Shown: one piece after another, positions 1-26,862 of the stretch | Numbering within the stretch: position 1 is the stretch's first letter | Layout: each line of letters begins with the position of its first letter | Assembly (NCBI GenBank): GCA_054600435.1 | Contig: BAAIJX010000041.1 | Location: 186,001 to 212,862, forward strand | Direction of reading: 5' to 3' | DNA length: 26,862 bases | From: Neophaeotheca triangularis | Taxonomy: Eukaryota | The notes under the pieces: model-generated | Database searches by the model: none | What the model saw: the letters and a program-made list of their open reading frames with translations, nothing else | Told to the model about the DNA's origin: nothing | Made by a program: the position numbers and the translations under genes

Positions 1-1
1 G

Positions 2-898
2 AAGCAAGTAGCTAATAAGCCTAGTATGCCTATCGTCGATATGCCGGCCTATATAGCCTTCGACATTTAGTATTCTTTTAACAAGAATACTATCTCCGAG
101 ATAGCGTTATACTAGAAGACAGCTATAGCTAAAGTAGGCGAGTTCTTACCGTCGGTACACGAGTTCCGGACCCTTATAGCCTTTCCGATACTCCTTAACC
201 TATATAACGAGGACTCCGACCTTTCTAAAGAGCTCGGGTCCTTTACTATTAAAGCTATGAAAACGATATTTCGATAGCGAGAGGAGATGTATCTTTAGGC
301 CTATATAGATAAGCTGTATAATACTAAAACGATGCTGTTAATCCGTTCGATTATATAAGCATTCCGTAAGTTACCTAATACATTAGGAAAGAAACGTAAA
401 GTCGTCTTCGCGGCTCACAAACTATTTAACCTTGTAATCCTCTAGCTATATCTCGTCTACCTTAGTAGACTAGATAGTTATGATGCGCTTCAAGACGAGG
501 ATAATATCGCCATAGTCGCATCGTGGGCATAGAGTCCGACCGCTAACTAAGAGAGGATAAAGGCGTTTACGACTATAATAAATAAGTCCGAGGGTTACGA
601 AGACAAACCCTTTATCATAGTAGCATCTGTTACTTAGATCAAGTCTAGTATATCTCTTCTACCTACTAATGTCGTGGTGTAGCTCGATAGTAACTAGGAT
701 CTAGTAACGGATTACTAGCTTACTAGCTATATATAGCGTAACGTATCGGTATAGGCAGCGAAGCATACGGAGAGCTTTAGGCTAGTGCCGTTCACTAAGG
801 ATGTTAAGCTCGTATACTAGTAGTCTTTGTCCTATACGAGTCTCTAGACTATAAAAAGTCAGATTGACGAGGTAGAGGCTATAATAGGCATAGTTTAA
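2..898 (+). pseudogene. RIP relic of a SNF2-like helicase/ATPase, C-terminal lobe (copy A; 5' part outside the window)
   Basis: Frame +2 reads KPSMPIVDMPAYIAFDI*YSFNK...KRKVVFAAHKLFN...KAFTTIINKSEGYEDKPFIIVASVT*IKSSISLLPTNVVV*LDSN*DLVTDY*L...ESFRL. This is collinear with the C-terminal part of the helicase relic at 6789-7705. The 3' end is approximate. Confidence 0.75.
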
Positions 899-1039
899 CA
901 CGACGTTACTATAGGGACGGGATAGATGCGACTAGGGCATATAGCCTATACGTACATTTTAGGTATTTAGTAGTAGCATATATAAGGCGAACATTTTAGT
1001 TAGAGACACGTTGATTTGCTAGCCGTCTTATAAGTCGTG

Positions 1040-1172
1040 TTCGAGTCGACACCCGAGTTAACACCTAAGTTAATACCTAAGTCGAGACCCGAGTCGAGAC
1101 CTAAGTCATATTCATATTTCATCTTGAACCTATTACCTAACCGAGTCGACAACCGATTCGGAAATCGTTTCG
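1040..1172 (+). repeat. 12-bp tandem array (CCCGAGTCGACA-like)
   Basis: gagtcgacaccc gagttaacacct aagttaatacct aagtcgagaccc gagtcgagacct aagtc, followed by ccgagtcgacaaccgattcgg. Confidence 0.85.
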
Positions 1173-1599
1173 AATACCTAGTGATAATAGAGTAAAGTAA
1201 ATACGTAGTATCCTTATACTAAAGGGTTAGTACCTATAGTGCTAGTGTAGTATGTAGAACAATCGTTTGATAATTAGAAATATGACCATGTACTAATAGT
1301 AGTTTAAATGCACGAGGGCTACAAACCTATAACGTACGCTGTTTTGCCGTTTTCGCCCTTATTTCTATGATATAGTATGTCGTAATAAAGACTATAGTCA
1401 ATCTTTACCTATTAGACTACTCTTACTACATACTACTCGATCAATACGACCTTGCTGTTAATTGATCCGTTTTACCTAAATCTTAAACTCTAACCCTAGC
1501 CGCGACTCGCTACCAAATCGCGAACTAAGCCGATTAGATTAAGCGTCTTTTTCGAGTTAAGACGAAAGTAATAACACCTCTCCTATAAGTTACACAAAC

Positions 1600-2760
1600 T
1601 ATAAGTAATGTCTCGCTCCTAATATAGATAGATTAGTCTCGAGCCGAAGAAAATTAGACCCTTATCGTTAATACCCGGATAACGTCCTATCGACACCCCT
1701 ACACGCCCTTATACTCGCTAACCTTCGTTAGATAAGAGAAGGAGATAAGCAAGTACTAGACAGGAACAACGCCGTCTTTAACTAAATTCAAGAAGCGTAA
1801 AGATAGGGAGACTTCGCGGCTAGGGTAAGGCCTAGTAGTAGTCGAAGGGGTAGTAGTACTAGTAGTAGCGACTACTACCTTAAGGCGTTTAAGCTTAGTA
1901 GACTTAGCCTCTAACCCCTTTACGAGATTATCGCGTTCCTTAGCGGTAGCGCGGTAGGGGTCGGGCCTAGTAGTAGTTAAAGGGGTAATAGTGCTAGTAG
2001 TAGCGACTACTACCTTAAGGCGTTTAAGCTCGGTAGACTTAGCCTCTAACCCCTTTACGAGATTATCGCGTTCCTTAGCGGCAGCGCGGTAGGGGTAGGG
2101 CCCGGTAGTAGTCGAAGGGGTAGTAGTACTAGTAGTAGCGGCTACTACCTTAAGGCGTTTAAGCTCGATAGACTTAGCCTCTAACCCCTTTACGAGATCA
2201 TCGCGTTCCTTAACGGTAGCGTAGTAGGGGTAGGGCCTAGTAGTAGTCGAAGGGGTAGTAGTACTAGTAGTAGCGGCTACTACCTTAAGGCGTTTAAGCT
2301 CGGTAGACTTAGTCTCTAACCCCTTTACGAGATCATCGTATTCCTTAGCGGTAGTGCGGTAGGGGTAAGTACTAGTAGTAGCTACTACCGTCTTAAGGCG
2401 TTTAAGCTCGGCGGACTTAGCCTCTAGCCCCTTTACGAGATCATCGCGTTCCTTAGTGGCTACGTAGTAGGGGTAGGGCCTAGCGATAGACGAAGAGGTA
2501 GTAGTGTAAGTAGTAGCTACTACTGCCTTAAGGCGTTTAAGCTCGGCATACTTAGTCTCTAACCCCTTTACTCGCTACAAGTTAACACTCTTTAGTAAGC
2601 TAGTACCTACCTTTACTCCTTACCTTTATATTCGAGAGCTACGCCTATAGCTATACGAAATAACCTAGCGACATCTACGGCGATCTACGAACGCATGATG
2701 ACTAGGGCCTATATGTTACCCGTATCCGGTAGTAACGCTCGTAGCATACTAGCGGCTTAT
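1600..2760 (-). pseudogene. RIP relic of an unknown protein with tandem 45-aa coiled-coil/low-complexity repeats
   Basis: A minus frame reads ...RALLPDTGNI*ALVIMRS*IAVDVARLFRIAIGVALEYKGKE*R*VLAY*KSVNL*RVKGLETKYAELKRLK, then repeats of ..RAAAKERDDLVKGLEAKSAELKRLK.. Repeat lengths keep the frame. Ends are approximate. Confidence 0.5.
1820..2570. repeat. 135-bp tandem repeat, about 5.5 copies (one unit shortened to 108 bp)
   Basis: The anchor ttaaggcgtttaagct occurs at 1880, 2015, 2150, 2285, 2393 and 2528 (spacings 135, 135, 135, 108, 135). Confidence 0.95.
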
Positions 2761-2767
2761 ACTATAG

Positions 2768-3290
2768 GCCGTAGTTAACTCGTTTACTAGCTAGACACTC
2801 GTATTACCCGAAACTAGTGGTAGGGCTCGAAAGGTATAATGATATGTGAACTTGAAGACTAAAACTGTCTTACCTTTACTCTCTTTATTCGCTTATGCTA
2901 ACTATAAGCCTTACTAATATAATAGCTAGCTACGATAGACCGGACAGCTATTAGTAGGACTCGACTTATACTACCGACTCACTTTCGGTATATAGACTAA
3001 GTCGTAATTCTAACATCATAGCCTATACACATAAGCCGTAGTTAACTCGTTTACCGACTTAGCGCTCGTATTGTTAGAAACTAGTAATAGCGCTCGCAGT
3101 AGACAATGATATGTGAGTCCTATAACTACCCTACCTTTACTTACCTCATTCGTTTATGCTAACTATAAGCCTCGCTAACATGATAGCTAACCGTAGTCAA
3201 ATAGACAAGTGTTAGTAGGACCCGACTCGTACTACCGACTTATATTACGGCTCGTAGTTAACTCGTTCACCGACTCGGCACTTACTACTA
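2768..3290. repeat. Diverged direct repeat, about 2.2 copies
   Basis: The anchor gtagttaactcgtt occurs at 2771, 3038 and 3254. The first two units share aatgatatgtga, ttatgctaactataagcc and ttagtaggac.cgact...actaccgact. Confidence 0.85.
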
Positions 3291-4879
3291 TGCCTACCTA
3301 GTACCTCCGACTACTAGGGTCCGCATTTACTTAGTAACGCTAGCACGTGCCACTACGCGCTTTTAGGCGTCGAAACACCTAGAAGTACGTTAACTAAACA
3401 ACTCCCTACCTCTTACTACTAACACTATAGTACATGTACTAACCGCTCGCACGATAAGTAGTAAATATACTATACTTAAGGGTAGCTCTCGTAGTTCGCC
3501 CCTTCACTCGATTTCCACAATTTGCTAGTAAAGGCATAAGAAACGCGGCAAACCTATATATGAATCCCGCGTGTACAACGCACTATAGCTCCCCCTAGGT
3601 AGGACCCGAAGCTCTTTACATCGATAGTAGACGCGAATCACTAGACTAATAATGCTAGTGATAATAATACTATGAGCTTAAGATAGCTATTTGACATCAC
3701 ATCTACAGAGTTTAGGGTTCTTCTTAATAAAGCGTAGCGACTTCTTATAGAGGCTTATAGTAGAGTCGAGAACGTTCCGAGCCGCCTCCCTAAGATATCT
3801 ACTTAGGGATACTCTCTATATATCCGCGTAGAAGAGGAGTTATATCGCACTTTAGCCGCTTTACTCTATTTACGTTAGGAGAAGGAGGGCACCTCGGCTC
3901 TAGCCTGGTTTCGCTTAGACATGACGTAGACTAGACGCGTATCTAGAGTAGGAGACGACGACAATAGACACCTAAACCCGACCCTTAGCCAGATACTTAT
4001 ACATTAAGTAAAGGCGACTAAATTCAAGGCACTAAAGACCTAGTCGACAACACCTATACTAGTAGCTACACTATTAGCACTATGAACCACTCCTATAGCG
4101 ACGTATCCCTCTAATATACTGACCGCGCCCTATATACCGACAGTATCCCCCGGAGCGACTATACCCTCTTCTAAGCGCCTATTGTCTCCGGACATAACGA
4201 CTAAAAGCTTAGTGAGACCTATACGCGAGGCTAGTATTAAAGCTACTAATACTATGACTAGATTAGTAACCCCTCGCTTTATAAGGTCTTATAGTCCGAC
4301 TCCTCTTCCTAAACTAGACCTAGAGCACGTTATAGTGTATATAACTTAGGTACGCGACTATAACGATAGTATCTACATTCGAATAAAAGCCGTTACCTAT
4401 AAGCATTTCTTTAGTTTCGGTAGTTCTTCTAATGCTAATAGGAAGTTAGCTAAGTTCAAATAAGTCTACGGAGTTAAATAGAAGGACATAGACTTCTACT
4501 AGCTAAAACCTTTTGCCTTTAACGCGTAGGCGTTAGATAACATATAGGAGATTAACACTACGCTTATTACGTAATAGACGTAGATCGATATACGAAGCCT
4601 TCTACGATTTGTCGGCATTAACCTCTTCCTTACTAATAACCCTAGCCTCCTTAAGCGACTACCCCCGAAGTACAAGATACTATCTTAAATACCTCGTATA
4701 GAAGTCGTACTCTACGAGGACGATCTCTAGGACATAGCGATAAGTGACGCCTAGCTAGTACATAGGGAGCTAGGAGGGGTAGTAGGTAAAACGGACGAGG
4801 AGCTTATATAGCGGTTATAGGCCTACGAGAACGAGATAGAAGTTAATGACGAGGAGCCGCGTGAGGAGCTATATAAGGG

Positions 4880-5035
4880 GCTAGGTAATGATCTAGGCGA
4901 TGATCTAGGTAATGATCTAGGTAATGATCCGGGTAATGATCCGGGTAATGATCCGGGTAATGACCTACTAGTTAACTTAGTGTCGAGTATCGAGCCGAAT
5001 ACCGAATCGACTCTTGACTCGACTTTAGAGTCGAA
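4880..5035 (+). repeat. In-frame 12-bp arrays inside the helicase relic (GATCCGGGTAAT, encoding PGND; then CGAATCG/GACTCG type)
   Basis: About 7 copies of ctaggtaatgat/ccgggtaatgat, followed by gagccgaatacc gaatcgactctt gactcgacttta gagtcgaat. Confidence 0.85.
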
Positions 5036-5683
5036 TATATAACAAGATGCACCTACCGTCGACATTATTAAGACTTCGACCACTCTTCCTGCCCTATAGT
5101 CTAAGTTTCCGTTTATAAGTGTCGTTAACTAGGCGTCTACGAAACTAAAAGCGCTTAGGCTAAAGACGGAACTAACTATAGACATCACGAGCTTTAGCGA
5201 GGGCGAAGAGTTAGAGTAAAAGACGGGCGAGAACAGCGAAGGTCTTAGTAAGTGTACGAGGAAGGGCAAGACGTACTAATAGACGCTAGTCCCTTAAATG
5301 ACTACGGCTTCTAATAATGAAGGCCCCTTGCCTAGGCTACTAGGAGATAAAATGTAGGAAGGCGAGGATAAAGTCAATAATTAGTCTTTACGCGACGACG
5401 ACGAATTAGAGACTATTATAGGATCTACGGTTATCGACCCTAAGTTATAGAAGGCCGCCTACAAATTCTTCGAGTTTAATCCTATAGAAACGGATTCGAG
5501 GAGTACTATTTAGTACTATAGGTAGAATAAGGCCACTAGACTATATACATACTAGATGTATGCTGTCGCTTTTACCTTATGAAGGTTCGTCTATAGCGAG
5601 GATCTCTTGATCGTCTTATTAGGTATAGGTTTAGGGAAGACTCCTATAGGACTCGCTATACTTAACCTATTACGCCGGATCTA

Positions 5684-5755
5684 GGAGTCGGTACCCGAAT
5701 CGGTACCCGAGTCGGTACCTAAGTCAGTACACGAGTTAGTACCCGAGTTAACCCT
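5684..5755 (+). repeat. In-frame 12-bp array GAGTCGGTACCC (ESVP repeats) between helicase motifs I and Ia
   Basis: gagtcggtaccc gaatcggtaccc gagtcggtacct aagtcagtacac gagttagtaccc gagtta. Confidence 0.9.
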
Positions 5756-7854
5756 AAAGCTAAGCGCGACGTGGTTCCGGAAGTTCGTAGCGCTAGGCGG
5801 TAAAGAAGAAGCGCCATATAAGGAGGGTATAACGCTTATCGTGTGTCGAAAACAACTACTTCTAATGTAGGCGGCTAAAGCTAGCAAATTCTTCGACAAG
5901 AAGAAAAACCCCCTAACACTTATAGTAGCCCATAAGACTAGCCTTAGCGAAGATAGGAAGAAGAAGACTAGCTACGACAAATGCATCTACTATAAGGGCT
6001 CTATACATATCGCCGACTACAAAGTGTACTATTAGCTTGCGAAGAACTTTAACGTAAAAACCGTTAAGGGGTAGAAAAGTAATGGCGGCATGATACCTAT
6101 TAGTATACTTCTTAGTAAGAGCTCAAGTAATGACTATAGGAACATAGACTACTTCTAGCAAAAGGACTTCTTCGTTCTAACAACACCGCAAACCTTGTCC
6201 CATATTGTAACAAACTTTAACATGTCTAAAGCTACTGTTACGAAGGGCTTCCTAGAGATAGCATAGGCAAGTATACTAGTCGACGAGTTCTATAAGACTA
6301 TCGCGTTTACATTATAGCCCTAGCCTACTATATCCGGGCTCGATAGTGACCTAGTAATCATTGCTATAAGTGCAACACTATTCACGAAGACGAAGGCTTT
6401 AGCTCCGGTCACCTTAGCGCCTTATGCTCGCTATTTCTAGGTAGAGGCGGAGAAAGCTATGTTCATGTCCGGTAATAGTAAAAGAGCTAAGGCGAGGACC
6501 TCTTTCTACAACTTTAGCAGTCTATTCACATTGACTAACACGTATATAGGCTTCCTCTTAGACGTCTCGCAAGCCGAAAGGAATAGGGTAAAGGACGTTA
6601 GTTATCTAGACATGCACTAGATATGTAACCCTATCGACAGCTTCATGTTAAAGAAGCTTAGTGACGGGATAAAGCGAGACGAGGAGATGCCCGATCACGT
6701 TAAAGACTATATCCGAAAGCTTAGCGACTAGCTTAAGCCTTAGATAGTTTCGTTCGACTCTAATTTGTAATAGAAGCTAGTTCTATCGAAACCTAGTATA
6801 CTAGTCGTTAATATACCTGCCTACTCTACCTTTAACGTTAGCTACTCTTTTAATAAGGGGACTAAAGACCTTATAGCTACCTATTAGTAAAAGAGCGTGA
6901 ATAGTACTAGGGATAGTAGCGAGGGCAAGAGCTAAGCATGGTTAAGTAGCGTGAACCGGTTTAGAGTTCTTATCTTGTTTCCTACGCTACTTCACTATAC
7001 GCTAAGCGACGATAAGGAAGGCGACGACCTATAGAATGAGCTCTTCCCCTTTAACACTAAAGAAGCTAACAAGATTGTCTAGGACCCTTAGAATACTACC
7101 CTCTAGAAGTATATAGGCGAACTCGACAAGACGCTTACGATGTAGCTCGTTCGTAACATGATCATTCAAATCTAATCGTAAAAGAATAGGCTCGACTTTA
7201 AGCGAAAGGTAGTGTTTGTTTACTATAAGCTAATCAATACTGCGATACTATACACCTACATTTAATGGCTATACGATCAAGAAGATTTTAAGGAGCTTTA
7301 GCATTATGAGTAGGTTGTCTTAGTCTTAAAGCTTACTAGCTAAATGTTAAAGGTTAGGGAAGAGAATATAAGGGCGTTTAAGATAACGTTAAACAAACAG
7401 GAGGGTTATTAGGACACCCCTTTCATTATAGTGGCTAGTATTAGTAGTGTCAAATCAGGGATGTCCCTACCTCTAGCCGACATACTAGTCTAACTTGATA
7501 GCGACTAGAACCATCTACCGATATGTAGCTCATAGGACGAGTGCGGCATAATGCTATAGTATAGCCTATAAAGTATATAGAGAGTTTTAGGTTCTTGTAA
7601 TCTATAGACACGGTCGAGCTCGGTAGGTAGTAATCGTATGTACATACGAGTAAGACTAACATTAAATAGAGGATCGAAGTAAACGTAATAGACGTTATAG
7701 CATAAGGTCCTACTAGTAGGCTAAGATCGAGTAGCGCGAGATCTTAGAGTCATAGGGTTAACTTGTTTCTTAGTATAGAGAGTATATAAGCATAACATAG
7801 GTTCTAATCTAAATGCTGTATTATATGTTTATTACTAATAGAACGACGTGTATC

Positions 7855-8030
7855 TTAAGTCGATTCGTTAATCGATTCATCTATAAGTCCTAAGTCGACT
7901 CCTAAGTTAACTATTGACTCGATTACTAAGTCAAGTCCTAGGTTAACTATCGATTCGCTTTCGGATTACACTATTAAGCGGGTTAATGCCGAACCTAGCC
8001 GGAGTCGAAACCCGAATCGCTTTTACGACT
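7855..8030 (+). repeat. Degenerate 12-bp array between helicase B and the transposase
   Basis: taagtcgattcg ttaatcgattca ... cctaagtcgact cctaagttaact attgactcgatt actaagtcaagt ... ggagtcgaaacccgaatcg. Confidence 0.7.
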
Positions 8031-8099
8031 TAGTACGTAGCAATATGCGCTACTTAAACCCATGAAATGAATAGCGCACTTCTTTAGCAACTAACCTCC

Positions 8100-11000
8100 T
8101 AGCTAAGTACCCTACCTAGTACCGATTAAGATAGGGAACTCGAGAACCTAAGGCACGTGTAGTCTAACCGTGAAAAGACCGGAAGGGTTAACAAGGCATA
8201 TACGAAAGTGTAGACTATAGGAAGCATAACAAGCCTAGTTTATACGTATAGTAAGACGACGTCCGAGTATAGACATATCTACTTAGGGCCTCTACTATAA
8301 AGGAGATACTAGCGACGATACTTCACGCGATTATGGCTCGTCGACGAATGCTAAGGCTACTAAAAGTAGGCATTAACAGATTGTCGAGGACGAAGAGATA
8401 GAATTATATGACATAGGCGTAGACTAGCTACTAACTAAAGAACTAAGCCATACTAGTATAGAGATGAATACCGCTCCTTATACTATAGGCCTAGCGCATA
8501 TAGGCAGTGTTATGGCGGACGACATAGCGCCTATTAGCGATCTCATAGAAGGTGAAGTAACTAGGTTCGTAGACGACTTCGAAGACGAAGTGCTTCTATA
8601 TAGCGATAACGGCTTAGGTATCTTTAATGACATATATTTTGCCATGCCTCTAACGAATAAAGACAAGGACGAGACGTTATAAACGCCCTACCCTACGGTT
8701 AATGACTAGACGATAGAGACTACGAATAGCGATAGAGATAAGGCGATAACGGTCTAAGCGTAGAGTTCGAGATCTATGAGATTAGAAAGAGGGAGACTCC
8801 GCTTATCTATATACCTAGAGAGCTATATAAAAGCGACATTTGAGAAAGAGACGGGAAAGCGCGCTAGGGTATGTAAGTACGCGTGAGTGTAACCCCTAAA
8901 CTACAGCTCTTAATGCATACTAAACAGGAACCTTTAGAAACTAAACGAGACGCCGAGCCGAGTCGTAAACCGAGTCGTAAACCGAGTCGTAAGCCGAGTC
9001 GTAATCTAAATTAGTAGACGAGGCGAATTATAAGGGTTTCGACAGTAGACTAGACTTTGCATTCGCGCATTAGCTACTATAGGAAAATATATCGGGGTAA
9101 GCAGTTAGTCGACTTTTAAGAGATCCCGCGATAGAACCTTTTTACGACTTGTTAAGTTAGAAGACTATAGCCGAACTTAGAGTAAGAATTAGGAAGATAG
9201 GGACTAAAAGGGTAGCTTCGGTAGGAGAGTAGTATAAATAAGAGCTAACTATATCAAATTCGCGGAACCCTACTAGAGAAGAGCGCTACGTCCTACGTTA
9301 TCGTAGAGTGGATAACGTCGTCAGATTCTTACTTAGTCATCTAGGCTTTAGTAGCGAGTTAATATACGAGCCGTGCCGTCTATAGACAATAGATAAACCA
9401 TGCCATCGCATCTACGCCGACATGTCTATAGGGGACTAGTAGTAGAGTATGTAGGAAGCATTAGATGTTAATAGAGCGACTATCGTCCCTCTTATTATCG
9501 CTAGCGATAAAACCTAGGTAACAAACTATGCTAGTGATCTAGCCGCTTACATAGTGTACCTTATGATTAGAAATCTCCTAGTAGCTATACGCAATTCGAA
9601 CGAGCGACCTAGAAGTGTTCTCCTAGCTATACTACCGATTATTAAAGACAGTAATGCGGACGAGAGGAGTAGGATGTTTCACGAGAGCATACGATAGATA
9701 TTCGACCCTATAAAGCGCATTATAGAGGAAGGGGGGATAATAATACTATGTAGTAATAGCTAGATAAGACATTACTTCCCTACGATTATAGTAATAGCTA
9801 TAGATTACGAGGAGCAGGTTAAGATCACGGGTATAAAAGCTAACTAACAATGCTCTATTTGTACTATATACCCTAGCGAACGGGAAGATCTCGAAGCTAC
9901 TATGCTATAGAGGACACACGAGTATACATAAGAGTAGTACCGCTGCTAGTAGACGGGAAAAGGCAAAAGAACCGACCCCGATTAGGTGTACGATATCGAC
10001 AACTTCGCGTTTAGCTATCGACATGTCGACATACATAAGGCGATAATAGTCGACATCCTATACTAGCTGCTTAAGGGAGTAATAATACACATGAAAGAGT
10101 GGATTATAGTATTAATAGTAGACAGGATGTCTAAGAAACCCTCGCAGTCGAGTAGTATTAACTAGAAGACGACTTAGGACCTAATTCGTAGGTATAGGCG
10201 ATATATAGGACTAGTATTAAAGGAAGCGGTTACGGCTATTATCGACTATCGTTTCGCCTATATACTGACATACCGCGGGATAAAGACATTCGCCTATTTA
10301 TTATCTATGAAGCAATAGACGGGTAAAGAGTAGAAGAGCATTCTACGGTAAATCCTACCTATATTTACCCTACTATTACTAGAGGTCGGAGAGTACGAAG
10401 CGGTGTATTTCCTATAGGCCGTCGTAGATTTCATACTATTAGCTATGTATAAGAGCTATAACGACGAAACTCTACAGTATATAGACTTAGCGCTATATCG
10501 TATAAACAAGTACAAGGAAGTCCTATAGAGATATCGACAACTAGGGAACGAAGACGGCTATTTCAATTTCCTGAAGTGGCATGTTATAACACATTACCTT
10601 ACTATGATTAGGCTGTATGGCAACGCGCTAGATCTCGATAGTAGACACTTCGAGCACAAGCATATTAACTTCGTTAAAGACTTGTTTAACGTAACTAACA
10701 AGTAAAAGGGTTAGGAAGACTAGATCTTCATGTATACCTTCTAGAAGCTAATAGTATAGGCTTAGTTCGACATTAGTTTGTTTATGCGACTAGAGACACA
10801 TGCAGAGAAGTAAGAAGCAAGTAGTATACCTAATCAACCTACCGCTCTAGTAGCGGTCTATAGGTTCTTTAGCTAGCTAGAGCGTAAAGGCTATATGAAG
10901 GGGGGAAATATCTAGAGGACTATAGGAGAGGTAGTAGGGCTCGTTAGTTAACTAATAGGGGAGCACCTCTACTAAGCTATCGTAGTGTTTATTCGTGAGT

Positions 11001-11770
11001 AATGACGTGAAGGAACTAGTAGTGCCGACAATCTAACTTAGGATCTAGACGCGCTACCTAGACTTATAGACTAGGTAAATAGCCTATGTGTTAAGTTCTA
11101 CAGATCGCTATAGTGCTAGAAACCTACTAGGGAGGACCCTAACGACATAGACGAGGAGTAGTAAGACATTGTCTGTTATAGTCCGAATTAGTAGGGTATA
11201 AAGGGACGAAAACGATATGACTAGATATAGGTATAAGAATACACTATAGATCCCGGGCAAGATAGTTCTACTGCATTTAAAGGGAGACTCCTAGCTTAGG
11301 TATAGTTCGTATTATCTATAGAAGATAGATACACGAGACTAGGGGAAACGTGCTAGGTCGAAGATGAAAACGGTAACCTACTAGTGTTTATAGGAGCTTT
11401 TGTTAAGCTATACCACCCTAAACACCTAATGGGTCTAGCCGACGACCTCTACGGAATGACGGTAATTAAAGTAGCACTACTAGCACTAGCGAGAGATAAG
11501 CTATAAGGCTGACGAATTTATAGCCTTACTTTAGTCTATTATGCAATCTACGTAGTTCTAGTAGACGAGAACTACGCCTATAGGGGTAATTGTTATATTA
11601 ATAACATAGCTGACTTTATGAGTTATAACATGCTGTAGAACGTAGAGTGGGAAACAAAGCAAGTAAGGGACGTAGTAATAGCGATAAGAGAGCATGAAAA
11701 ATCGAAAGCGAGGACAATAGGCGAGCGCGATAGCAAGCGTAAAAAGCGGAAGGAAAATGTCGTAGTGTAA
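8100..11770 (+). pseudogene. RIP relic of a Plavaka-family transposase (CACTA/EnSpm-related DDE transposase)
   Basis: Frame +2 from ~8930 to TAA at 11770 reads RIYADMSIGD***SM*E..ATIVPLIIASDKT*VTNYASDLAAYIVYLMIRNL, MFHESIR*IFDP, DYEEQVKITGIK..QCSIC, DILY*LLKG, KQ*TGKE*KSILR*IL, FNFLKWHVITHY..MIRLYG and FEHKHINFVK..FN.TNK. These are motifs I recognise as typical of Plavaka transposases. The N-terminal exon in frame +1 has a Zn-finger-like TCSLTVKRPEGLTRHIRKC (~8155-8211) and an acidic region. A probable intron lies at ~8873-8927 (GTAAGT...CAG). Confidence 0.9.
8953..9005 (+). repeat. In-frame 12-bp array CCGAGTCGTAAA inside the transposase
   Basis: ccgagtcgtaaa ccgagtcgtaaa ccgagtcgtaag ccgagtcgtaat. 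Confidence 0.9.
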
Positions 11771-11814
11771 AGAACAAACCTAGTAATAGAGGACGCGAAG
11801 CACGTTACGAATCA

Positions 11815-11950
11815 CCTTAGGCTTATGTGCCGACTCATAGTCCGACTTATAGGCTGACTTATATTCTGACTCATATTCCGACTTATACTCCGAATCATAC
11901 TCCGAATCATGCTCCGGCTTATAGTCCGACTTAGTACACTACTTAGGTGC
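11815..11950 (+). repeat. 12-bp tandem array CCGACTCATATT-like, just downstream of the transposase
   Basis: ccgactcatagt ccgacttatagg ctgacttatatt ctgactcatatt ccgacttatact ccgaatcatact ccgaatcatgct ccggcttatagt ccgacttagtac. Confidence 0.9.
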
Positions 11951-12355
11951 CGGTTCATTTACTAAATAAACATGAACGTTGATCTTATATTGCTTACCTC
12001 GGGCGAAACTAATCTAAACCCTCTATAGAGTAGCTCTCTTAACTAGAGCGAAAGCTATAAAGTAATATCTTATGCTCTAGCTTATACTCCGACTCATGCT
12101 CTAACTTATACTCTAGCTTAGCATAACACTTAGGTATAGGTTAGTTTGTTGATGGACATGTACGTGATCCTATAGATAAGTTGCTCTTATATTGCTTACC
12201 TCGGGCGAAACTGATCTAAACCCTCTATAGAGCAGCTCTCTTAACTAGAGCGAAAGCCATAAAGTAACATCTCATGCTCTAACTTATACTCTAACTTATG
12301 CTCCGGGTTAGTACACCACTTAGGTATAGGTAGGTTTATTAATAGATATATACGT
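11930..12355. repeat. ~202-bp direct repeat (2 copies), each containing a 12-bp sub-array
   Basis: cttatattgcttacctcgggcgaaact..tctaaaccctctatagag occurs at 11984 and 12186. Confidence 0.9.
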
Positions 12356-12374
12356 GCTTCGTGGATCGCTATAT

Positions 12375-13000
12375 GTAGCGCCTCTAAAGGTACTTCGTTA
12401 ATGGCCATTTCTAGCGTCTTAGTAGTAGAAGGAAGACGTAGTAACGTGAAGAGTGATTAGCCTTAAGTAGCTTCGTCTATAGAGTTCTCTAGCATCTCGA
12501 CTATTATATGATTCGAGGCAACTTTCACGGTGTAGGCGCTTCGTTTATAGCTATCTCTAACGCCTCTAGAGGTACTTCGTTAGTCGCTATCTCTAGCACC
12601 TCTAGAGGTGCTTCGTTAATAGCTATTTCTAGCATCTTAGTAGTAGAAGGAAGACGTAGAAACGTAAAGAGTAGTTAGTCTTAAGTAGCCTCGTCTACGG
12701 AGTTCTCTAGCATCTCGACTATTATATGATTCGAGGCAACTCTTATAGTGTAGGCGCTTCGTTAGTCGCTATCTCTAGCGCCTCTAGAGGTGCTTCGTTA
12801 ATAGCTATTTCTAGCGTCTTAGTAGTAAAAGAAAGACGTAGAAACGTGAAGAGTAGTTAGCCTTAAGTAGCTTCGTCTATAGAGTTCTCTAGCATCTCGA
12901 CTGTTATATGATTCGAGGTAGCTTTTATAGTGTAGGCGTTTCGTTTATGGCTATCTCTAACGTCTCGATAGGTGCTTCGTTAATCGCTATCTCTAGCGTG
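12375..13000. repeat. Nested tandem repeat: 3 units of 218/182 bp built with 36-bp subunits
   Basis: The anchor gattcgagg occurs at 12510, 12728 and 12910. Units differ by one 36-bp subunit (gcctctagaggtgcttcgttaatagctatttctagc). Confidence 0.9.
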
Positions 13001-13014
13001 TAGCTATAGTTTGA

Positions 13015-13160
13015 ACCGAGTAATAGACGAGGGTAGACTCACGTTCCGACTCACGTTCTAACTCACGTTTCGACTTATGTTTCGACTTACGTTCCGACTC
13101 ACATTCCGACTTACGACTAGATTTAAGTGCTAACTTATATGCCGACTCATGTTCCGGCTA
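13015..13160 (+). repeat. 12-bp tandem array CCGACTCACGTT
   Basis: agactcacgtt ccgactcacgtt ctaactcacgtt tcgacttatgtt tcgacttacgtt ccgactcacatt ccgacttacg ... ccgactcatgtt ccggct. Confidence 0.9.
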
Positions 13161-13299
13161 TTATTAGGGCCTTCTTTCTCCTCGTGTAGGAGCCTAATAA
13201 TACGCCGTGATGACTAATAAGTGTTGTAGATCGTAGAGCATACATCGATATACGTTAGTCTATAAAGGGAGATAGTGATAAGCGCTAGTATACGACGGT

Positions 13300-13575
13300 A
13301 TGCGGTAGTCTACAGTAGTCTGCGATAATCTGTAATGTTCTAACTAGCGGTATAGACATGTACTAGTCTACGCGAATATGCGATAGTCTACGTATGAATA
13401 TTGTAGTCTATATCGCGGGCTTATATGCGATAGTCTACGCTAGTCTACACGAGTCTACGCTAGTTTACATGTATATACGGCGTTCTACATAGCGATGTAG
13501 TTAGTGAACGTCTTCGCTAGTAAGCGCGAAAATGCGCTCGTAAGCCTATCTACGCCTATAAGCGTGTCTACGACT
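13300..13575 (+). repeat. Subterminal ~10-bp repeats (TAGTCTACGC-like), about 10 dispersed or tandem copies
   Basis: tagtctacag tagtctgcga ... tagtctacgc ... tagtctacgt ... tagtctacgc tagtctacac gagtctacgc tagtttacat. Confidence 0.75.
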
Positions 13576-13602
13576 ATAAGCGACGCCTTAGTTTCATAGA
13601 CG

Positions 13603-14037
13603 TACTTAGACTTAGATTTTATAGGTAATCTAGCTATATCTAGATTAATATCTAGCTTAGCCATTTTTATAAATAGTATATCTATAATCTAGAGATCTTA
13701 GAGATAGAAGGAAGTTATCCTATTAAGCACTAAGGTAGAGTATGTTATATTAATAGAAATTATAAGGGAAATTAACTAGATGTAGAATCTTTTCCTTAAA
13801 CTTTAGCCTTTAATAGAATTCAGCTTAAAGACTATTAAGGTTTATATTAATAATAAGTTAGCTATCCTACTTATAGAAGACTATACTAACTTAAAGCGGT
13901 TAAAGCATATATCCCTTAGAAATTATTACTATAGGGAATAGCTTAAGAAGGGGGTTATTAATATTAAATACATTAATACTACTAAGTAGCTAGTAGATAG
14001 TCTAACTAAGCTAAAGTCCCCTAACTAGATAATTTAA
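13603..14037 (+). pseudogene. Copia pol RNase H domain relic
   Basis: Frame +1 reads YLDLDFIGN (YSDSDFAGD before RIP)...I*RS*R*KEVILLSTKVEY...NNKLAI...KRLKHISLRNYYYRE*LKKGVINIKYINTTK*LVDSLTK, matching the Copia pattern SSTEAEY / KHI.LR.H..RE / QLADGLTK. Confidence 0.9.
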
Positions 14038-14249
14038 GATTATCCTACTCTTAGAGAGTAATATATCCTTATAGGATATAGCATTTTCCCTTTATTTCTA
14101 AACTCTAGAAAACTATCCTAGGAGAAACCTACTACACTATGTAGTATTCCCTTTATACTAACTAAGAAACCTAAGAAACCCTAGAAAACACTAAAACCCT
14201 AGGAAACCATCTCCTAAGAAATAACACCCTTATAGGACACCTTTTTTTC

Positions 14250-15580
14250 CTTTATTTTACTTTTTCTAGCTATCCTTAGAACTACCCTAGCTATCCCTAG
14301 CACTACCCTAGCTATCCCTAGCACTACCCTAGCTACTATCCTTCTTACTATCCTTCCTTACTAAGAGGCTTAAAGACGATAAAGAACTACTAGAACTAGA
14401 GGAGCCTCCTATAGAAGTTAGGAAGCCCTAAAAGGTACTTTCTCTACTAGACCTAGCTCTTATAGTAGATAGGGTAGATCTAGGACCTATTCCCCTATTA
14501 AGGGTAGACCTACTACTATAGATATCTACCCTTTACCTTAAGGCCTAAGCAAATATAGTAGCCCTAGCTAGGGTACTCTAGTCGATACTATTAGGGATTA
14601 GCACTTTAGTATATCTACTAGTTATTAGAGGAGCTATAGTAGGGGAGCTAGCTATTAACCCTATCCTTCTTAGTAAAGATACTAGAGTTTCCTATAAAGA
14701 TTTTGTCTATAGGACTAGCTAATAGGCTATCTACATATTAGTAAAGAATTCCTATAGAAATTAGTTAGTAATACTTATAAGAGAAGTCATATTAGTTAAA
14801 ATAGTTACTATAACTATAATTTCTATAGGCACCCTTTATAAACTTTTTACCCTTATGTTCTAAGGTAATATAGTTCTTCTAAGGGCCGTTACCCTTCTTA
14901 TATCTACTATAAGCTATATCCCCTTTATGAATTTTACCTCCCTTAGTAGCTTAGATTATAGTAGTAGGGAGGTAATTAGTATTCTTAGTAGATTATAGGT
15001 TAAATTTCTTACTAGCTACCCTTATCTCTAGCTTATTCTTTAGGGCTAAGGACTTATTAGAAGTATAGAACTACTAAGCCTTAGTATTACGGAATTATAG
15101 CTATATTTACTTAACGTTATCTAGTTTAAGGTTAACTACGACTTAGCGGATTCTACGTAAAGTAGCTAAGTCTAGCTAGATATAGTTAAGGACTATTTAA
15201 AGATGTTAGCGAAATTCTTATAGCTAGCCTATAGTAACTTACTTAATGTAGCTAGCTAGTTTAAGTTATATATAGCATAAGTAGAGGGAGTACTAGTTAG
15301 TAGCTTCTTACTACTACTAGAGCTACCTATACTACCTATCGTGCTTTAGTTAACGGTAGCTATACTAAAGCTACTATTAGTACTAAAGGTACTAAAGCTA
15401 AAGTGTTATTAGTTTTACTAGCTAGTATTAGTAAAGAAGCTATTAGTATAAAGGTAAAGCTATTAGTATTAAGGCAACTAGTAAAGATAAGACTAGTTAT
15501 TAGTACTTAGTAAAGATAAGAGGAGCTAGTTATAGTAGTAGGAAAAGTTAGAGAACTATAGTAGGAGGAGTAGGCCTTTT
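14250..15580 (-). pseudogene. Antisense extra ORF relic in the Copia 3' region, with a Cys-rich DUF3716-like motif
   Basis: The minus frame at ~14960-14775 reads II*ATKGGKIHKGDIAYSRYKKGNGP*KNYITLEHKGKKFIKGAYRNYSYSNYFN*YDF. Reversing TpG>TpA gives C..CKKGNGPWKNC...GAC.NC........CDF. ORF limits are approximate. Confidence 0.55.
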
Positions 15581-15761
15581 TATAGTACTATATTCTTTTA
15601 GGAGCTTTCTAAAAGTAACAGTAAAACACCTTCTACCTATTACTAGTAGCTTCTACGTAATAACGTATAGTAGTATGTAGTAGCGGCAATCGCCGCAAAA
15701 CGTAGTATTTATACATTCACTACTGAAAAGAGTAGTTACGTACGCTTGATAGCAGGGAGAG

Positions 15762-15913
15762 TGTTATAATAAGCCGTACTACGCAGCACGTGACGGATGC
15801 CTAAGGCAGAAGCTGCAGAAGCCGCAACCTGTCTTTACAGGCTTTGCTGTAAAGCACCTAGTTTAGTCCTTAGTAATCAATTAATCGAGTTCGTGCCGCT
15901 GCATATCACAACA
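15762..15913 (+). repeat. 3' LTR (152 bp) of the Copia element
   Basis: Starts TGTTATAAT (RIPed TGTTGTGAT) directly after the purine tract and ends ATCACAACA, giving a 9-bp terminal inverted repeat after de-RIP. Candidate target-site duplication CTTAT at 15914-15918. Confidence 0.85.
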
Positions 15914-16711
15914 CTTATCTCACACTTTCTTCTCAAACCCTAAAGGCTCGGATCGTCATGAGCGCTATGGTGTGCCTCAAGAAGCCTGTCGCGCTGTACT
16001 ACCGCTACCGTCAAGATAGTTCCGACAGCACATGGTGAATAAAATCCCGATCCCGCGACAGATTTGCCACACATCACGAGCTTTCATTTCAACACGCCAG
16101 AGTCCACTCGAAAGTCTTCGACCTCTCCATCCCACTGAATGCGGGCAGCCGGCAAACGTCGACCCAACCTCACAATGGATGTTAACGGCAATCGCCCTGC
16201 CGCTAATTCTCCTGAACAGAGGTTGTGATCCCATGTGTCGTCTGGATATGCTACGTCACGGAGGGATGGTAGGTGCCAACCTTGGAAATTTAAAGCGGCC
16301 GAAATAAAAGAGGCGTAACGAGCTTTGAGTCGATAGGGTAGTTTCACTGGACTGCTGTCTGTAGATTGCTCCGCTGATGGCTTGAAATGCAAAGTGAAGA
16401 AGGTGAGCGAAGCCGGTACACATATGACTTGTCCGAATCCTAGCCGTCTTCTTATATTTTAATCGTTCGCACAGCTCGCGGCAGGCACTTGCAGACCACG
16501 TGGGCAAGCGGAAGTTAGATCAAGATGCGAGGGACAGGGTCACGTAATCTGGTCGCGAGGGGCCAGAGAAGGGACGGGAAAGTAAAAGTAGCAGTTGCGA
16601 CTATGCAACCCCTATTGAGTGGAAGCTAACCAAGACAACCCAGTCCATCAACAGCACCCAGGGAGTCGTAAGTCCAAACGACTATGCTGCTATCAACTCC
16701 TGCCAACTCCC

Positions 16712-18517: not shown

Positions 18518-18714
18518 TGCGAAGATTGCAGTTGCTGACGGCTGATAAGTATGCTGGTGAGGGAATGTTCCTGGAGATGTGTGGAGATATTTCCTGGAGA
18601 CTCCATGGGGAATGCGGCCCGTATATATAATCATACCCGCTTCACGGTTCTGAGGCTGCTGCGGCAATTGAAGGCTCCGGGCTACTCCCATACTCACCGG
18701 TGGCATTAGCTATA

Positions 18715-18729
18715 CGGTTCCGGCGGAAC
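18715..18729 (-). promoter_or_regulatory. Candidate Zn2Cys6 binding site GTTCCGCCGGAACCG upstream of transporter 1
   Basis: The identical 15-mer occurs at 20436-20450. This copy lies ~200 bp upstream of the ATG and ~90 bp upstream of a TATA-like run at ~18622-18630. Confidence 0.6.
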
Positions 18730-18935
18730 GTAAAGTGGCCTTGGACAGCCACAGCCCGGTACGATGATTGCCGGTAAGAAACCTTGCGGGAGGTGTGCAA
18801 TGTTCTGCGGGCTAACCTCAAAACCACCGAGGCAATTTGGCTGCATTACTATCGACGCCTTGAGACACCAGCACACCCGTAGTCATGGAACAGATGCATG
18901 CAATCGATATCGTCTCCATTGGTACAGCGAACTAC

Positions 18936-20160: not shown

Positions 20161-20432
20161 GGCTGAAGTTCGACTCAAATGTTTCGAGCGAGGGTACCTG
20201 GCTTGATCAATTGAGCTTTACATGATGTCCCCGGTATATAACGTCTTGAAATGCTCTTTCTGCAGCTTTCCACGGCACGCCATCGCGCAGTGCTCCATTT
20301 GAGTCGCCGAGTCTGATCAAAATGGATCCAATTTTTGAGTGACTTTGCTCACAGTATTGTCATTTCCCGCAGGTTGCAACAACAACGGCTAGTTAGGTCA
20401 AACCGTAAAGGGCTGATCGTCAAAAAGCCACA

Positions 20433-20500
20433 CCGGTTCCGCCGGAACCGGCACACGCGCAGCTGCCCGAGTTGCAAACACCTCGACTCCGCCGGAACCG
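20433..20500. promoter_or_regulatory. Two copies of TCCGCCGGAACCG in the divergent dehydrogenase/transporter 2 promoter
   Basis: CCGGTTCCGCCGGAACCGG (near-palindrome, 20433-20451) and TCCGCCGGAACCG (20488-20500). CGG triplets are typical of Zn2Cys6 sites. Confidence 0.6.
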
Positions 20501-20830
20501 AGCACTATATTGTCTTTTGTCGGCAAACTTTGACAACCTTCCAGGAACCACTGGCCTTGTGGCAATCCCGTTTGATGTCCGCTATATCCACGGTCTGACC
20601 CACGATTTCCTGCTATGTGGAGCCCCAGGCCAACGTGCCACCCCAAGACGGAGCGATGATTGCAGTGCGGGCTCGGCATGGTAGATCGTTCAAGAGTTTT
20701 GAGAGTATTAAAGGATGGCACGCTGTTCTCGACACATTGCGAAACACCGACAGTAACCACTGGTCTCTTTTTGCTTCTGCTCAACGACTCGACCCTAGTA
20801 TACACCCATTTCCGTAAGCCAAGCTGCACC

Positions 20831-26639: not shown

Positions 26640-26673
<34 letters not shown>

Positions 26674-26740
26674 AAGGGGGGGTTTTGGGTTTTTTTTTTT
26701 TTTTTTTAAAATAAAAAAAAAAAAAAAAAAAAAAAAATAA
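26640..26740. other. Homopolymer run block (poly-G, poly-T, poly-A); probable sequencing/assembly artefact or simple repeat
   Basis: About 28 G followed by long T and A runs, near the window end. Confidence 0.6.
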
Positions 26741-26862
26741 CACGACGACGAGAACGAGACAGCAACAAGGTAAAGAAAACCCACCAACGCCGGAGAACAG
26801 GAACGGGAGACTCACCGGTGGCAGCACACTTACCCCAACGCCGTTCGCACTTACCTCGAAAC

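Follow-up and report, generated by a model that had tools for sequence, protein, structure and literature searches.

Relics of Snf2-type ATPase genes beside a Plavaka transposase relic in a RIP-mutated block of Neophaeotheca triangularis

The window analysed here, a 26,862-nt stretch of the Neophaeotheca triangularis contig BAAIJX010000041.1 (186,001–212,862, forward strand; all coordinates refer to the window), raises the question of whether chromatin-remodeller-like genes and a transposase lying side by side once moved together. An earlier note, made from the letters alone, had proposed a multi-gene transposon of more than 13.6 kb. We give about even chances to the reading that positions 1–13,604 come from a single large Plavaka-lineage DNA transposon that RIP has inactivated; longer than 13.6 kb and with Snf2-type cargo, it would be represented here by its right-hand part.

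The transposase gene can be placed as follows:

9002–11650, + strand: Plavaka transposase relic (Pfam domain at nt 9176–10105; alignment to intact relatives)

In the plus-strand frame 8102–11770, scanned with X at stops, PF18759 is matched over residues 359–668, corresponding to nt 9176–10105 (E 6.2e-48; 164 bits against a cut-off of 26.3). The stretch 9002–11650 aligns over its full length with four intact Dothideomycete proteins at 30–42% identity: P0026 (41% identity, 92% cover, E 4e-193), P0027 from Aureobasidium pullulans, P0028 and P0029. The named relatives (Aureobasidium pullulans, Taxawa) all belong to Dothideomycetidae. Together, the domain match and the whole-length alignment bear out the Plavaka relic that had been read at 8100–11770. 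It contains 60 stops in 883 codons and retains SDKT, DYEEQ, C-x2-C and H-x3-H followed by E, predicted from their sequence to be catalytic and zinc-type motifs.

Upstream lie two SNF2-like relics:

2–898, + strand: hel1, C-terminal third of a SNF2-like ATPase relic, the gene exceeding the window's left end
3585–5384, + strand: probable N-terminal part of the hel2 relic, with an ATA start (3585–3587) and a shared frame
4875–4970, + strand: array B, in frame within this N-terminal part
5385–7790, + strand: hel2, SNF2-like ATPase core relic (phmmer, tblastn, motifs)
5679–5750, + strand: array C, in frame within the ATPase core

Neither relic itself matches Pfam in the one frame scanned (5505–7790 for hel2), and the family was recognised through relatives. 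A phmmer search with 5505–7790 against 1.84e9 representatives yields 21 relatives at E ≤ 1e-3 (best 1.8e-43). Half of the 14 scanned (7/14) pass the SNF2-rel_dom cut-off, two fall just below it and five show no match; the intact proteins helA and helB reach 38.6 and 34.4 bits against a cut-off of 24.9. PDB profile matches of the relatives are Snf2 remodellers in 61 of 61 cases, and the matches listed by Foldseek for the P0001 model (pLDDT 71.5) are Snf2-family ATPases in 50 of 50 (E 7e-15 to 2e-11). By Pfam, PDB profiles, ESM Atlas and Foldseek, the hel2 relatives are thus Snf2-family proteins. In hel2 itself, tblastn of helA spans 5385–7520 (E 3.5e-41), and GLGKT, DEFY (DEFH in relatives) and SATLF (SATPF in relatives) are retained.

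The intact relatives match, in fold and motifs, the Snf2 family (Chd1, ISWI, INO80, Mot1, CSB, Rad54, DDM1/HELLS) and nothing else, but share only 11–15% identity with its members in fold alignments and could be assigned to no one subfamily. Their Pfam scores are low (25–48 bits), Helicase_C stays below its cut-off, and unlike known Snf2 proteins they carry a long N-lobe insertion and an uncharacterised N-terminal region of about 370 aa.

The earlier note had called the relic at 3585–7790 a complete SNF2-family ATPase. The SNF2-type identity holds; completeness is borne by homology for about 5385–7520, while 3585–5384 is assigned from a shared frame with few stops (5.6 per 100 codons), a weak profile match and the exon layout of a relative's gene. 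By hhalign, 3585–5384 is collinear from residue 2 with the relatives' 367/368-aa N-terminal exon, a weak match with E 0.013 but a probability of 3%, and hmmsearch gives an i-E of 1.2. In the metagenome locus L001, the ORF of this N-terminal exon is in frame with that of the ATPase once a 52-nt intron (GTTAGT...CTGAC...TAG, splice signals read by eye) is removed, so this "upstream ORF" probably represents the first exon of the ATPase gene. The ATA at 3585–3587 is possibly a RIPed ATG.

The end of a second paralogue at 2–898, also proposed earlier, is confirmed: hel1 shares 39% identity with the hel2 C-terminus over 244 aa (BLASTP, E 1e-41), and tblastn of intact helA and helB matches nt 14–787 (E 1.7e-33 and 5.4e-31). 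It carries 14 stops in 263 codons. hel1 and hel2 are therefore two diverged paralogues of a rare, divergent Snf2-family ATPase. They show no DNA similarity detectable by blastn and, at this distance, are presumably too unlike to trigger RIP on each other. The pair is no accident of the N. triangularis locus, because the un-RIPed metagenome contig L002 has two co-oriented SNF2-like paralogues as well, 3.1 kb apart and with tandem repeats before each. This un-RIPed pair and the exon-1 reading of the upstream ORF are new observations.

All three genes of the block lie on the plus strand. The transposase begins 1.2–1.4 kb past the end of hel2, which is directly upstream. The signs of RIP are also alike throughout, as the earlier note had stated: TpA/ApT is 1.5–2.5 and (CpA+TpG)/(ApC+GpT) 0.34–0.47 in every segment but a tandem repeat described below, and each of the four relic frames has 5.3–6.8 in-frame stops per 100 codons, 161 of the 165 being TAG or TAA. 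CpG is retained across the whole block and not in the neighbouring repeat.

Could the SNF2-like genes be ordinary single-copy host genes, mutated by RIP that spread from neighbouring repeats? The distance between the paralogues (39% amino acid identity, nothing by blastn) would fit, as would copy number: over 2,669–12,006 the contigs of run X1, which is probably the source run and so not independent, gave no further copy with a likeness of 80% or more, and the summed depth there (129–153, the value of the single covering contig) compares with 125 in the gene flank. The earlier claim that the helicase genes were multicopy is for this reason not shown for the N. triangularis genome. Against a host origin, all 13.6 kb carry an even RIP dose, yet the signature is gone within about 250 nt beyond the far (right) side of the flanking repeat, which makes leakage from that repeat unlikely. 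Both paralogues are dead, and their relatives are few, scattered in distribution and for the most part found on short contigs, a pattern ill-suited to a housekeeping remodeller. We consider the host-gene explanation very improbable. The named relatives, three among the 21, come from Polychaeton citri (two proteins) and Meristemomyces frigidus, all Dothideomycetidae.

The block is further marked by short repeats, the following in addition to arrays B and C:

1037–1148, + strand: array A, 12-bp, unit ~ACACCCGAGTCG, just 3′ of hel1 (TRF; CCGAGTCG at 1089 and 1141)
7855–7990, + strand: array D, short repeats with AAGTCGA and CTAAGTTAAC units, just 3′ of hel2, resembling array A (TRF row 7855–7878)
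8950–9005, + strand: array E, 12-bp, CCGAGTCGTAAA x4, at the 5′ edge of the transposase relic (TRF, 97% matches)
11824–13115, + strand: non-coding 3′ region with arrays F–H (units such as CATACTCCGACT and CGTTCCGACTCA) and a 182/218-bp tandem repeat at 12357–12999
13257–13468, + strand: AGTCTA(C) short-repeat cluster, subterminal-repeat-like, 140–350 nt from the right junction (TRF period 10/20)

TRF finds nine period-12 arrays, near or inside all three genes. The earlier note had seen the parts linked by the same 12-bp motif; most arrays do have a common core, but the units differ. CCGAGTCG occurs eight times against 0.74 expected, always within 1–9001 and with four exact copies in array E, while TCCGACTYA occurs seven times against 0.36 expected, always within 11841–13113. 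The core reads GAGTCG to the left of the transposase core and as its complement CGACTC to the right, arrays F–H being inverted relative to A, C and E. The repeat-laden 3′ region, about 1.8 kb from the transposase to the junction, is non-coding, with no Pfam family in six frames of 11650–13604. Near its end, AGTCTAC has six of its eight window copies within 13307–13452, and AGT[CT]TA[CT] nine of 14 within 13257–13462.

En/Spm (CACTA) elements, whose transposase clade is related to Plavaka, carry 12-bp subterminal TnpA-binding motifs. The block is similar in that arrays of a 12-bp unit beginning CCGAC flank the transposase in opposite orientation; it differs in that neither CACTA ends nor a TnpA-like gene could be identified and that some arrays lie inside reading frames.

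These repeats can also be read as those of a compact Plavaka element of about 5.6 kb (~8,000–13,604), next to an unrelated RIPed SNF2-like block that would be a different kind of mobile element or a gene cluster that had once been duplicated, their co-orientation being chance. Arrays D and E on the left and F–H on the right, with inverted cores, would then be its subterminal repeats, and GTAGACT, the inverted form of the AGTCTAC clustered near the right end, occurs three times (8210, 8419, 9045). Array A and the array 3′ of hel2 align at 75.5 in a transition-tolerant comparison (control maximum 39.5), and the nucleotide similarity of the two helicase modules ends just after the arrays, at about 1,150 and 8,000 (downstream score 81.5, control mean 76); a boundary at ~8,000 between helicase module and Plavaka part is therefore possible. 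The un-RIPed L002 pair likewise shows no Plavaka gene within 10 kb upstream by tblastn. However, no partner for a terminal inverted repeat (TIR) is present at 7,800–8,700, the common array core also occurs inside hel2 and 3′ of hel1, and neither RIP dose nor CpG retention changes at the supposed boundary. We regard two independent neighbours as a tenable but less likely account. No Plavaka gene was seen by tblastn at six metagenome loci with helicase relatives, the downstream flank being missing for L001–L003; these are the loci of the close relatives, and downstream is the side on which the transposase lies in the window. The cluster tables show no apparent contig common to a helicase relative and a transposase relative.

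On the right, the block has a distinct limit:

13602–13606, no strand: right junction of the block, meeting a different many-copy, CpG-poor repeat (13606–15870)

Here CpG o/e drops from 1.5–1.9 in the block to 0–0.3 (locally 1.59, 0.24, 0.0) and GC from 0.41 to 0.32 in the flanking repeat. Contig 4 of run X1, the sole cover of the block's right part, stops at 13,632, many further contigs match beyond, and the summed word depth of X1 contigs rises from ~130 to 490–1690. The sharp junction noted earlier at ~13604 is real, and six frames of 13605–15872 hold no Pfam family of another giant element. Repeat search and end comparison detected neither a TIR nor a left end within the window: the reverse complement of the right end finds at best 31–32 of 40 purine/pyrimidine matches in 1–13,000, the median of 200 random 40-mers (range 30–37). 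The best gapped inverted match, of 2988–3465 with 13601–13171, considered as a TIR, stands 2.7 sd above 57 windows and was rated chance.

The failure to find any kind of end within the window would also suit a larger element, for example of Starship type, with its defining genes left of the window and the whole block, Plavaka included, as cargo or debris. The X1 contig covering 1–1858 continues leftward for 8,717 nt as one contig, so the low-copy RIPed block may far exceed 13.6 kb. Pfam reveals no such genes in one frame of 3585–7790, 8102–11770 and 2–898 or in six frames of 899–3600, 11650–13604 and 13605–15872, and the right junction comes after subterminal repeats like those of a transposon, which go with the Plavaka gene. 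We regard this as improbable, though less so than a host origin.

We favour the reading as one Plavaka-lineage transposon. Of the earlier proposal, the parts are real, co-oriented, equally RIPed and share a right end; no TIR or left end was found in the window, and no second copy among the X1 contigs. The SNF2-like genes and the transposase were probably once one mobile unit, although one dead copy cannot prove joint movement. Such an element, from a Dothideomycete-like ascomycete, would encode a CMC/EnSpm-like DDE transposase of the Plavaka lineage and, upstream on the same strand, an accessory gene present once or twice, whose product of ~1,250–1,400 aa would combine an uncharacterised N-terminal region with a divergent Snf2-family ATPase. 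It would adjoin, and probably be inserted inside, the many-copy repeat, with its left end beyond the window. We hypothesize that the DDE transposase would cut and paste the element, and that the Snf2-type motor, using ATP to translocate on DNA in chromatin, may open the element's ends or target for the transposase or counter heterochromatic silencing.

In such a role, the ATPase would resemble the cargo directed at chromatin in other Plavaka elements (TET/JBP; PAG1-3). The earlier note knew of no described family with this architecture, and literature searches agree, but Plavaka elements that bear cargo, and giant ones, have been reported before (PMC12730594; bioRxiv 10.1101/2025.02.11.637652). 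Fungal elements include the TET/JBP-carrying PlavakaB (Kojima 2025, PMC12730594, as far as its accessible text goes), which like the block joins a PF18759 transposase to an accessory gene acting on chromatin or DNA; its cargo is a dioxygenase rather than a Snf2-type ATPase. The families in that text were reconstructed from Agaricomycotina, whereas the host here, an ascomycete in which RIP operates, has its relatives in Dothideomycetidae. The ends it gives, TGT..ACA or CATCA..TGATG with a 2–3 bp TSD, were not found in the block, whose right end reads ...GACGTAC and not the ACA or TGATG of PlavakaA/PlavakaB (PMC12730594).

Giant Plavaka elements of 17–19 kb with accessory genes PAG1-3 occur in the red alga Bostrychia (bioRxiv 10.1101/2025.02.11.637652, in the part available). 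Like the block, they are very large and encode a Plavaka transposase; with it come several accessory genes that presumably act on DNA or chromatin, one of them adjoined by tandem repeat arrays. They belong to another kingdom, their cargo is N6-adenine methylase/SET and ParB-like/2OG oxygenase, and they have curated ends and huge copy numbers, neither of which the block shows. AcademH, KolobokH and Helitron are DNA transposons encoding their own SF1/SF2 motor protein, but with other transposase or nuclease superfamilies and helicase families, none described as Snf2-type in the accessible portion of PMC10799480. If our reading is true, the SNF2-carrying block would be a further variety of cargo-bearing Plavaka elements.

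Two repeats lie between hel1 and hel2:

1815–2571, no strand: 135-bp tandem repeat, ~5.6 copies (TRF, self-blastn)
2755–3240, no strand: two direct repeats of ~225 bp, upstream of the hel2 relic (self-blastn)

The first, which has the strongest RIP index of the block, replaces the repeat-protein relic that had been read at 1600–2760: TRF gives period 135 with 4.2 copies over 1815–2381 (91% matches) and overlapping rows to 2571, and the open minus-strand frame has only sub-threshold coiled-coil Pfam matches. In the second, 2755–2979 and 3021–3240 are 72% identical (self-blastn, E 4e-29).

By GC content the window falls into three zones: 1–13,604 at about 0.40, 13,605–15,870 at about 0.32, and the remainder at 0.50–0.58. 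One of the 37 ORFs of at least 80 aa lies left of 15,900. The right zone carries ordinary fungal genes, encoding two sugar transporters, a zinc-type dehydrogenase and a protein with a fungal-specific transcription-factor domain. The features treated below are:

1–13,604, RIPed block
2–898 (+), hel1, end of a Snf2-like ATPase relic
1815–2571, 135-bp tandem repeat
3585–7790 (+), hel2, paralogous Snf2-like ATPase relic (core 5385–7790)
8102–11,770 (+), transposase relic
13,606–15,870, CpG-poor, many-copy repeat adjoining the block

The RIP signature covers both left-hand zones and is gone within about 250 nt, at 15,750–16,000. TpA/ApT is 1.46–3.93 and (CpA+TpG)/(ApC+GpT) 0.15–0.47 in the block, as against 0.71 and 1.17 in the non-repeat flank (15,701–26,862); the usual thresholds are about 0.89 and 1.03. 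In-frame stops of the relic frames are TAG or TAA in 161 of 165 cases. RIP dose and stop density are uniform through the block, in agreement with the earlier note, which had judged its parts to be RIPed to a similar degree. Leakage of RIP onto the helicases from neighbouring DNA is a poor explanation, because the dose stays flat over 13.6 kb and yet stops at once beyond the flanking repeat. The block has kept a CpG o/e of 1.2–1.9, versus 0–0.3 in the adjoining repeat (GC 0.32). A frame starting at 13,606 resembles what we take to be the RNase H/C-terminal end of a Ty1/Copia pol gene, followed by LTR-like sequence; the likeness lies in a ...SDSDF..G......ST.EAEY-like pattern, read with RIP undone by eye. 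A six-frame Pfam search of 13,605–15,872 gave no family above cut-off. Should the Copia likeness hold, the Plavaka block would break up a pol gene of Copia type.

The identity of the transposase is secure. Translated with X at stops, 8102–11,770 (+) matches PF18759 with 164.1 bits (cut-off 26.3; E 6.2e-48) and spans positions 7–325 of the 325-position profile (nt 9176–10,105), so that the Plavaka transposase relic proposed from the bare sequence is confirmed by Pfam. A word-index search with 9002–11,650 returned four intact relatives: P0026 from a metagenome (41% identity, 92% cover, E 4e-193), P0027 (Aureobasidium pullulans D6D04_10664), P0028 (Taxawa tesnikishii) and P0029. Aligned with these four, the relic keeps SDKT, DYEEQ, QCSIC (C-x2-C), WHVITHY (H-x3-H) and HFEHKH, the same D, D, C-x2-C, H-x3-H, E pattern as is given for the EnSpm/Transib/Plavaka clade in the accessible part of Kojima 2025 (PMC12730594). 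Which of these residues would be catalytic we infer from that description.

The two helicase relics, 3585–7790 (+) and 2–898 (+), match no Pfam family themselves, and their SNF2-type assignment is drawn from their intact relatives. An exhaustive phmmer search with 5505–7790 yielded 21 proteins with E ≤ 1e-3, of which 10 reach ≤ 1e-10 and 2 reach ≤ 1e-30 (best 1.8e-43); among the 14 of them scanned for SNF2-rel_dom (PF00176), seven were above cut-off, two just below it and five gave no match. The intact paralogues helA and helB of the metagenome locus L002 reach 38.6 and 34.4 bits for this domain (gathering score 24.9). Their Helicase_C (PF00271) scores, 22.5 and 21.7 bits, are below the gathering score of 23.5; the C-lobe is nonetheless recognized through PDB profile hits. 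All 61 hits of the PDB sequence-profile search were remodellers, including ISW1 (3e-10), HELLS, INO80, Rad54 and DDM1, and all ESM Atlas neighbours of the intact relatives possess SNF2-rel_dom. An AF2 model of the relative P0001 (pLDDT 71.5) matched Snf2-family ATPases in 50 of the 50 Foldseek PDB matches listed, and the predicted Snf2-type two-lobe fold is thus that of a relative and not of the relic.

In the N-lobe of hel2 we recognize motifs I (GIGLGKT), II (VDEFY; DEFH in relatives) and III (SATLF; SATPF in relatives), the change of H to Y in motif II being of the C-to-T kind that RIP produces. The C-lobe blocks KRKVVF, KPFIIVAS...LD and R-N-x-x-V-x-x-A-x-x-T-E are kept in hel1. The two relics share 39% amino acid identity over 244 aa (E 1e-41), with no DNA similarity under ordinary blastn. 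Taken together, the support for a Snf2-like ATPase is good, although the Snf2 subfamily cannot be named. Two 12-bp arrays, at 4875–4970 and 5679–5750, run in frame within the Snf2-like frame as (GNDL/GNDP)n and (ESVP)n; the second lies in a loop behind motif I whose length differs among relatives.

A word-index search with intact helA gave just two proteins, and a profile search of viral and genome contig collections with the helicase alignment gave no loci. The named helicase relatives are two proteins of Polychaeton citri (K431DRAFT_316936 and K431DRAFT_316948) and one of Meristemomyces frigidus (LTR85_005691); the named species with helicase or transposase relatives are, taken together, all Dothideomycetidae. 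With 21 relatives among 1.84 billion representatives, the searches flag a rare, unannotated Snf2 branch, of which intact members exist in named Dothideomycetes and in metagenome contigs.

Scanning metagenome contigs with a four-protein helicase alignment yielded six loci. L002 has 53% GC, lacks the RIP signature and carries its two paralogues in the same orientation (helB at 4255–6765, helA from 9887 to the contig end; 50% amino acid identity). Each is preceded by an ORF of 367 or 368 aa (36% identical to one another) and a tandem-repeat array. The stretch 2740–11,491 of L002 can be described as two tandem modules, each of tandem repeats, a 367/368-aa ORF and a SNF2-like ORF. The 367/368-aa family has no relatives outside its own contigs, no tblastn match in the window and, but for a LicP_NPro hit below threshold in the 368-aa copy, no Pfam family; an AF2 model of the ORF was discarded (pLDDT 40).

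Locus L001 (498–4323) suggests how the two ORFs are related. Its 368-aa ORF ends ...CAGAG|GTTAGT, and 52 nt (1600–1651) containing CTGAC and ending in TAG separate it from the in-frame ATPase ORF. Judged by the usual splice signals, we read these 52 nt as a fungal intron, which would make the gene product a single protein of about 1,257 aa; P0001 (873 aa) and P0025 (251 aa) in the public annotation are then probably pieces of one such gene. The long relic at 3585–7790 described in the earlier note fits this fused model: between 3,601 and about 6,750, stops are few in frame +0 of the window, and the stop density over 3585–4874 (5.6 per 100 codons) matches that of the proven coding parts. The N-terminal match itself is weak. 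From window residue 2 onward the profile of the N-terminal exon is collinear with the relic (hhalign E 0.013, 3% probability), and an hmmsearch of the 367/368-aa family on the window gave an i-E of 1.2. At 3585 the relic has ATA, perhaps an ATG altered by RIP.

Paralogue identity is 39% and 50% within the two genomes, versus 23–31% across them. Because copies within a genome are closer than copies between genomes, the tandem could be ancestral with later homogenization, or could have arisen twice. L004 and L005 encode helicase relatives with a long N-terminal extension, and L006 matches weakly and in part, next to Vps39-like genes; no Plavaka gene was found on any of these three loci. When the block was compared with all six loci by tblastx, matches were limited to the helicase segments. 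The contigs of helicase relatives and those of transposase relatives have no length in common.

The sequence features are real, and the question is whether they belong to one element. In the window hel1, hel2 and the transposase all lie on the plus strand, with a SNF2-like gene directly upstream of the transposase. Transition-tolerant alignment detects likeness between the 3′ ends of hel1 and hel2 (130, control maximum 69) and between the arrays behind them (75.5, control maximum 39.5); past those arrays it finds no further likeness (81.5 against a control mean of 76). Because DNA likeness stops behind the arrays, the duplicated helicase module ends at about 1,150 and about 8,000. The Plavaka part after the second helicase copy could be a separate unit; the common strand and the adjacency of the genes, the uniform RIP dose and the retained CpG speak for a single element. 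Of the explanations considered we favour a single large Plavaka element whose cargo was of Snf2 type, with about an even chance of being right; proof through a pair of ends or further copies was not found.

A single element is further favoured by nine period-12 arrays, which are spread through the block and absent from the rest of the window. The earlier note had them share the same 12-bp motif; the arrays are there, and their units differ. The motif CCGAGTCG occurs 8 times versus 0.74 expected, always within 1–9001 and in seven of the eight cases on the plus strand, and TCCGACTYA occurs 7 times versus 0.36 expected, always within 11,841–13,113. Given this distribution, the CGACTC core faces inward on either flank of the transposase core. 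The 1.8 kb following the transposase contain many arrays and a 182/218-bp tandem repeat but no Pfam family, and a cluster of AGTCTAC repeats lies 140–350 nt from the right junction; by its sequence this 3′ region looks like the subterminal region of a transposon. Six-frame Pfam searches of 899–3600 and 11,650–13,604 gave no family above cut-off. What had been taken for a repeat-protein relic is the 135-bp tandem repeat at 1815–2571. Its open minus-strand frame encodes a 45-aa coiled-coil-like unit whose Pfam hits are all sub-threshold, and the long frame is not independent evidence for a gene, because the unit is repeated. The tandem repeats between the helicase genes of L002 are unrelated to it in sequence.

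The right end, at 13,594–13,604, reads ...CATAGACGTAC, and the left end is beyond the window. Plavaka ends are described in the accessible part of PMC12730594 as TGT..ACA (PlavakaA) or CATCA..TGATG (PlavakaB), with a 2–3 bp target-site duplication. Neither form is seen at the right end in the window, a CACTA...TAGTG end with a 3-bp target-site duplication is likewise absent from the right junction, and TIR searches found no inverted partner above chance in the window. RIP could have altered the element's ends. One weak inverted match, 2988–3010 with 13,580–13,601, starts 3 nt from the right junction (15 identities and one transition in 19 columns, one gap) and belongs to a gapped inverted alignment of 480 nt that scores 2.7 sd above 57 other windows. 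We rate it as chance; were it real, it would delimit a 10.6-kb element with hel2 and the transposase and without hel1.

Copy number was assessed in the public run X1, which is probably the source of the assembly and so not independent (99% of sampled words present). Four X1 contigs cover the block without differences, and summed word depth over 2,669–12,006 is 129–153, versus 125 at the single-copy gene flank. Several copies with common boundaries were not found: no further X1 contig is at least 80% alike over 2,669–12,006, a comparison that would miss copies RIPed below 80%, so a single copy is not proven. The earlier note's inference that the helicase genes were probably multicopy finds no confirmation in these contigs. 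Over 13,341–16,008 the depth rises to 490–1,690 and many further contigs align, which makes the flanking repeat a many-copy family. The contig over window positions 1–1858 runs 8,717 nt past the left end, so that the block, provided hel1 is complete, probably exceeds 17 kb by a good margin. In two runs under the same organism label, X2 and X3, both the repeat block and its gene neighbours went unrecovered at 80% likeness; the matches are 39–41 nt long even on the gene flank, so that these runs do not bear on whether the block is present or absent. The label of the three runs may cover quite different genomes.

Large Plavaka elements with cargo are known. The accessible part of PMC12730594 describes, besides the PlavakaA and PlavakaB ends, TET/JBP cargo in mushrooms, and that of a preprint (bioRxiv 10.1101/2025.02.11.637652) describes 17–19-kb elements of red algae with the accessory genes PAG1-3, among them methylase/SET and oxygenase genes; such cargo acts on DNA marks or chromatin. 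Helicases are carried by AcademH, KolobokH and Helitron, according to the accessible part of PMC10799480. A full-text search of the literature, covering main texts, turned up no Plavaka or EnSpm element described as carrying a SNF2-type gene, and the accessible parts of PMC5751038 and PMC7473861 contain nothing relevant.

We tentatively propose, with somewhat less than even confidence, a Dothideomycete Plavaka lineage with a regular cargo of one or two genes, each encoding a protein of about 1,250 aa with an N-terminal domain and a divergent Snf2-family ATPase; in that case a DNA transposon family would, for the first time, have a chromatin-remodeller-type motor of its own. Such a motor might help the element to get onto or off nucleosomal DNA, or to withstand silencing by heterochromatin, and the motor or the transposase would bind the flanking 12-bp arrays of CCGAC type. 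If true, this would extend the Plavaka theme from chemical marks to mechanical remodelling and offer a concrete case, open to testing, in which a transposon supplies its own tools for coping with chromatin. The value of this window alone is limited, as it holds one dead copy without ends.

Two minor observations concern the right part of the window. The genes at 16,712–25,133, which adjoin the repeat block, comprise two sugar-transporter genes (one apparently intron-split), a zinc-type alcohol dehydrogenase gene and a fungal-specific transcription-factor gene, and may be co-regulated, as a sugar-use cluster bordering an AT-rich region. Near the window end, at 26,645–26,737, a run of 38 G is closely followed by a run of 30 A, which may be an assembly or read artefact.
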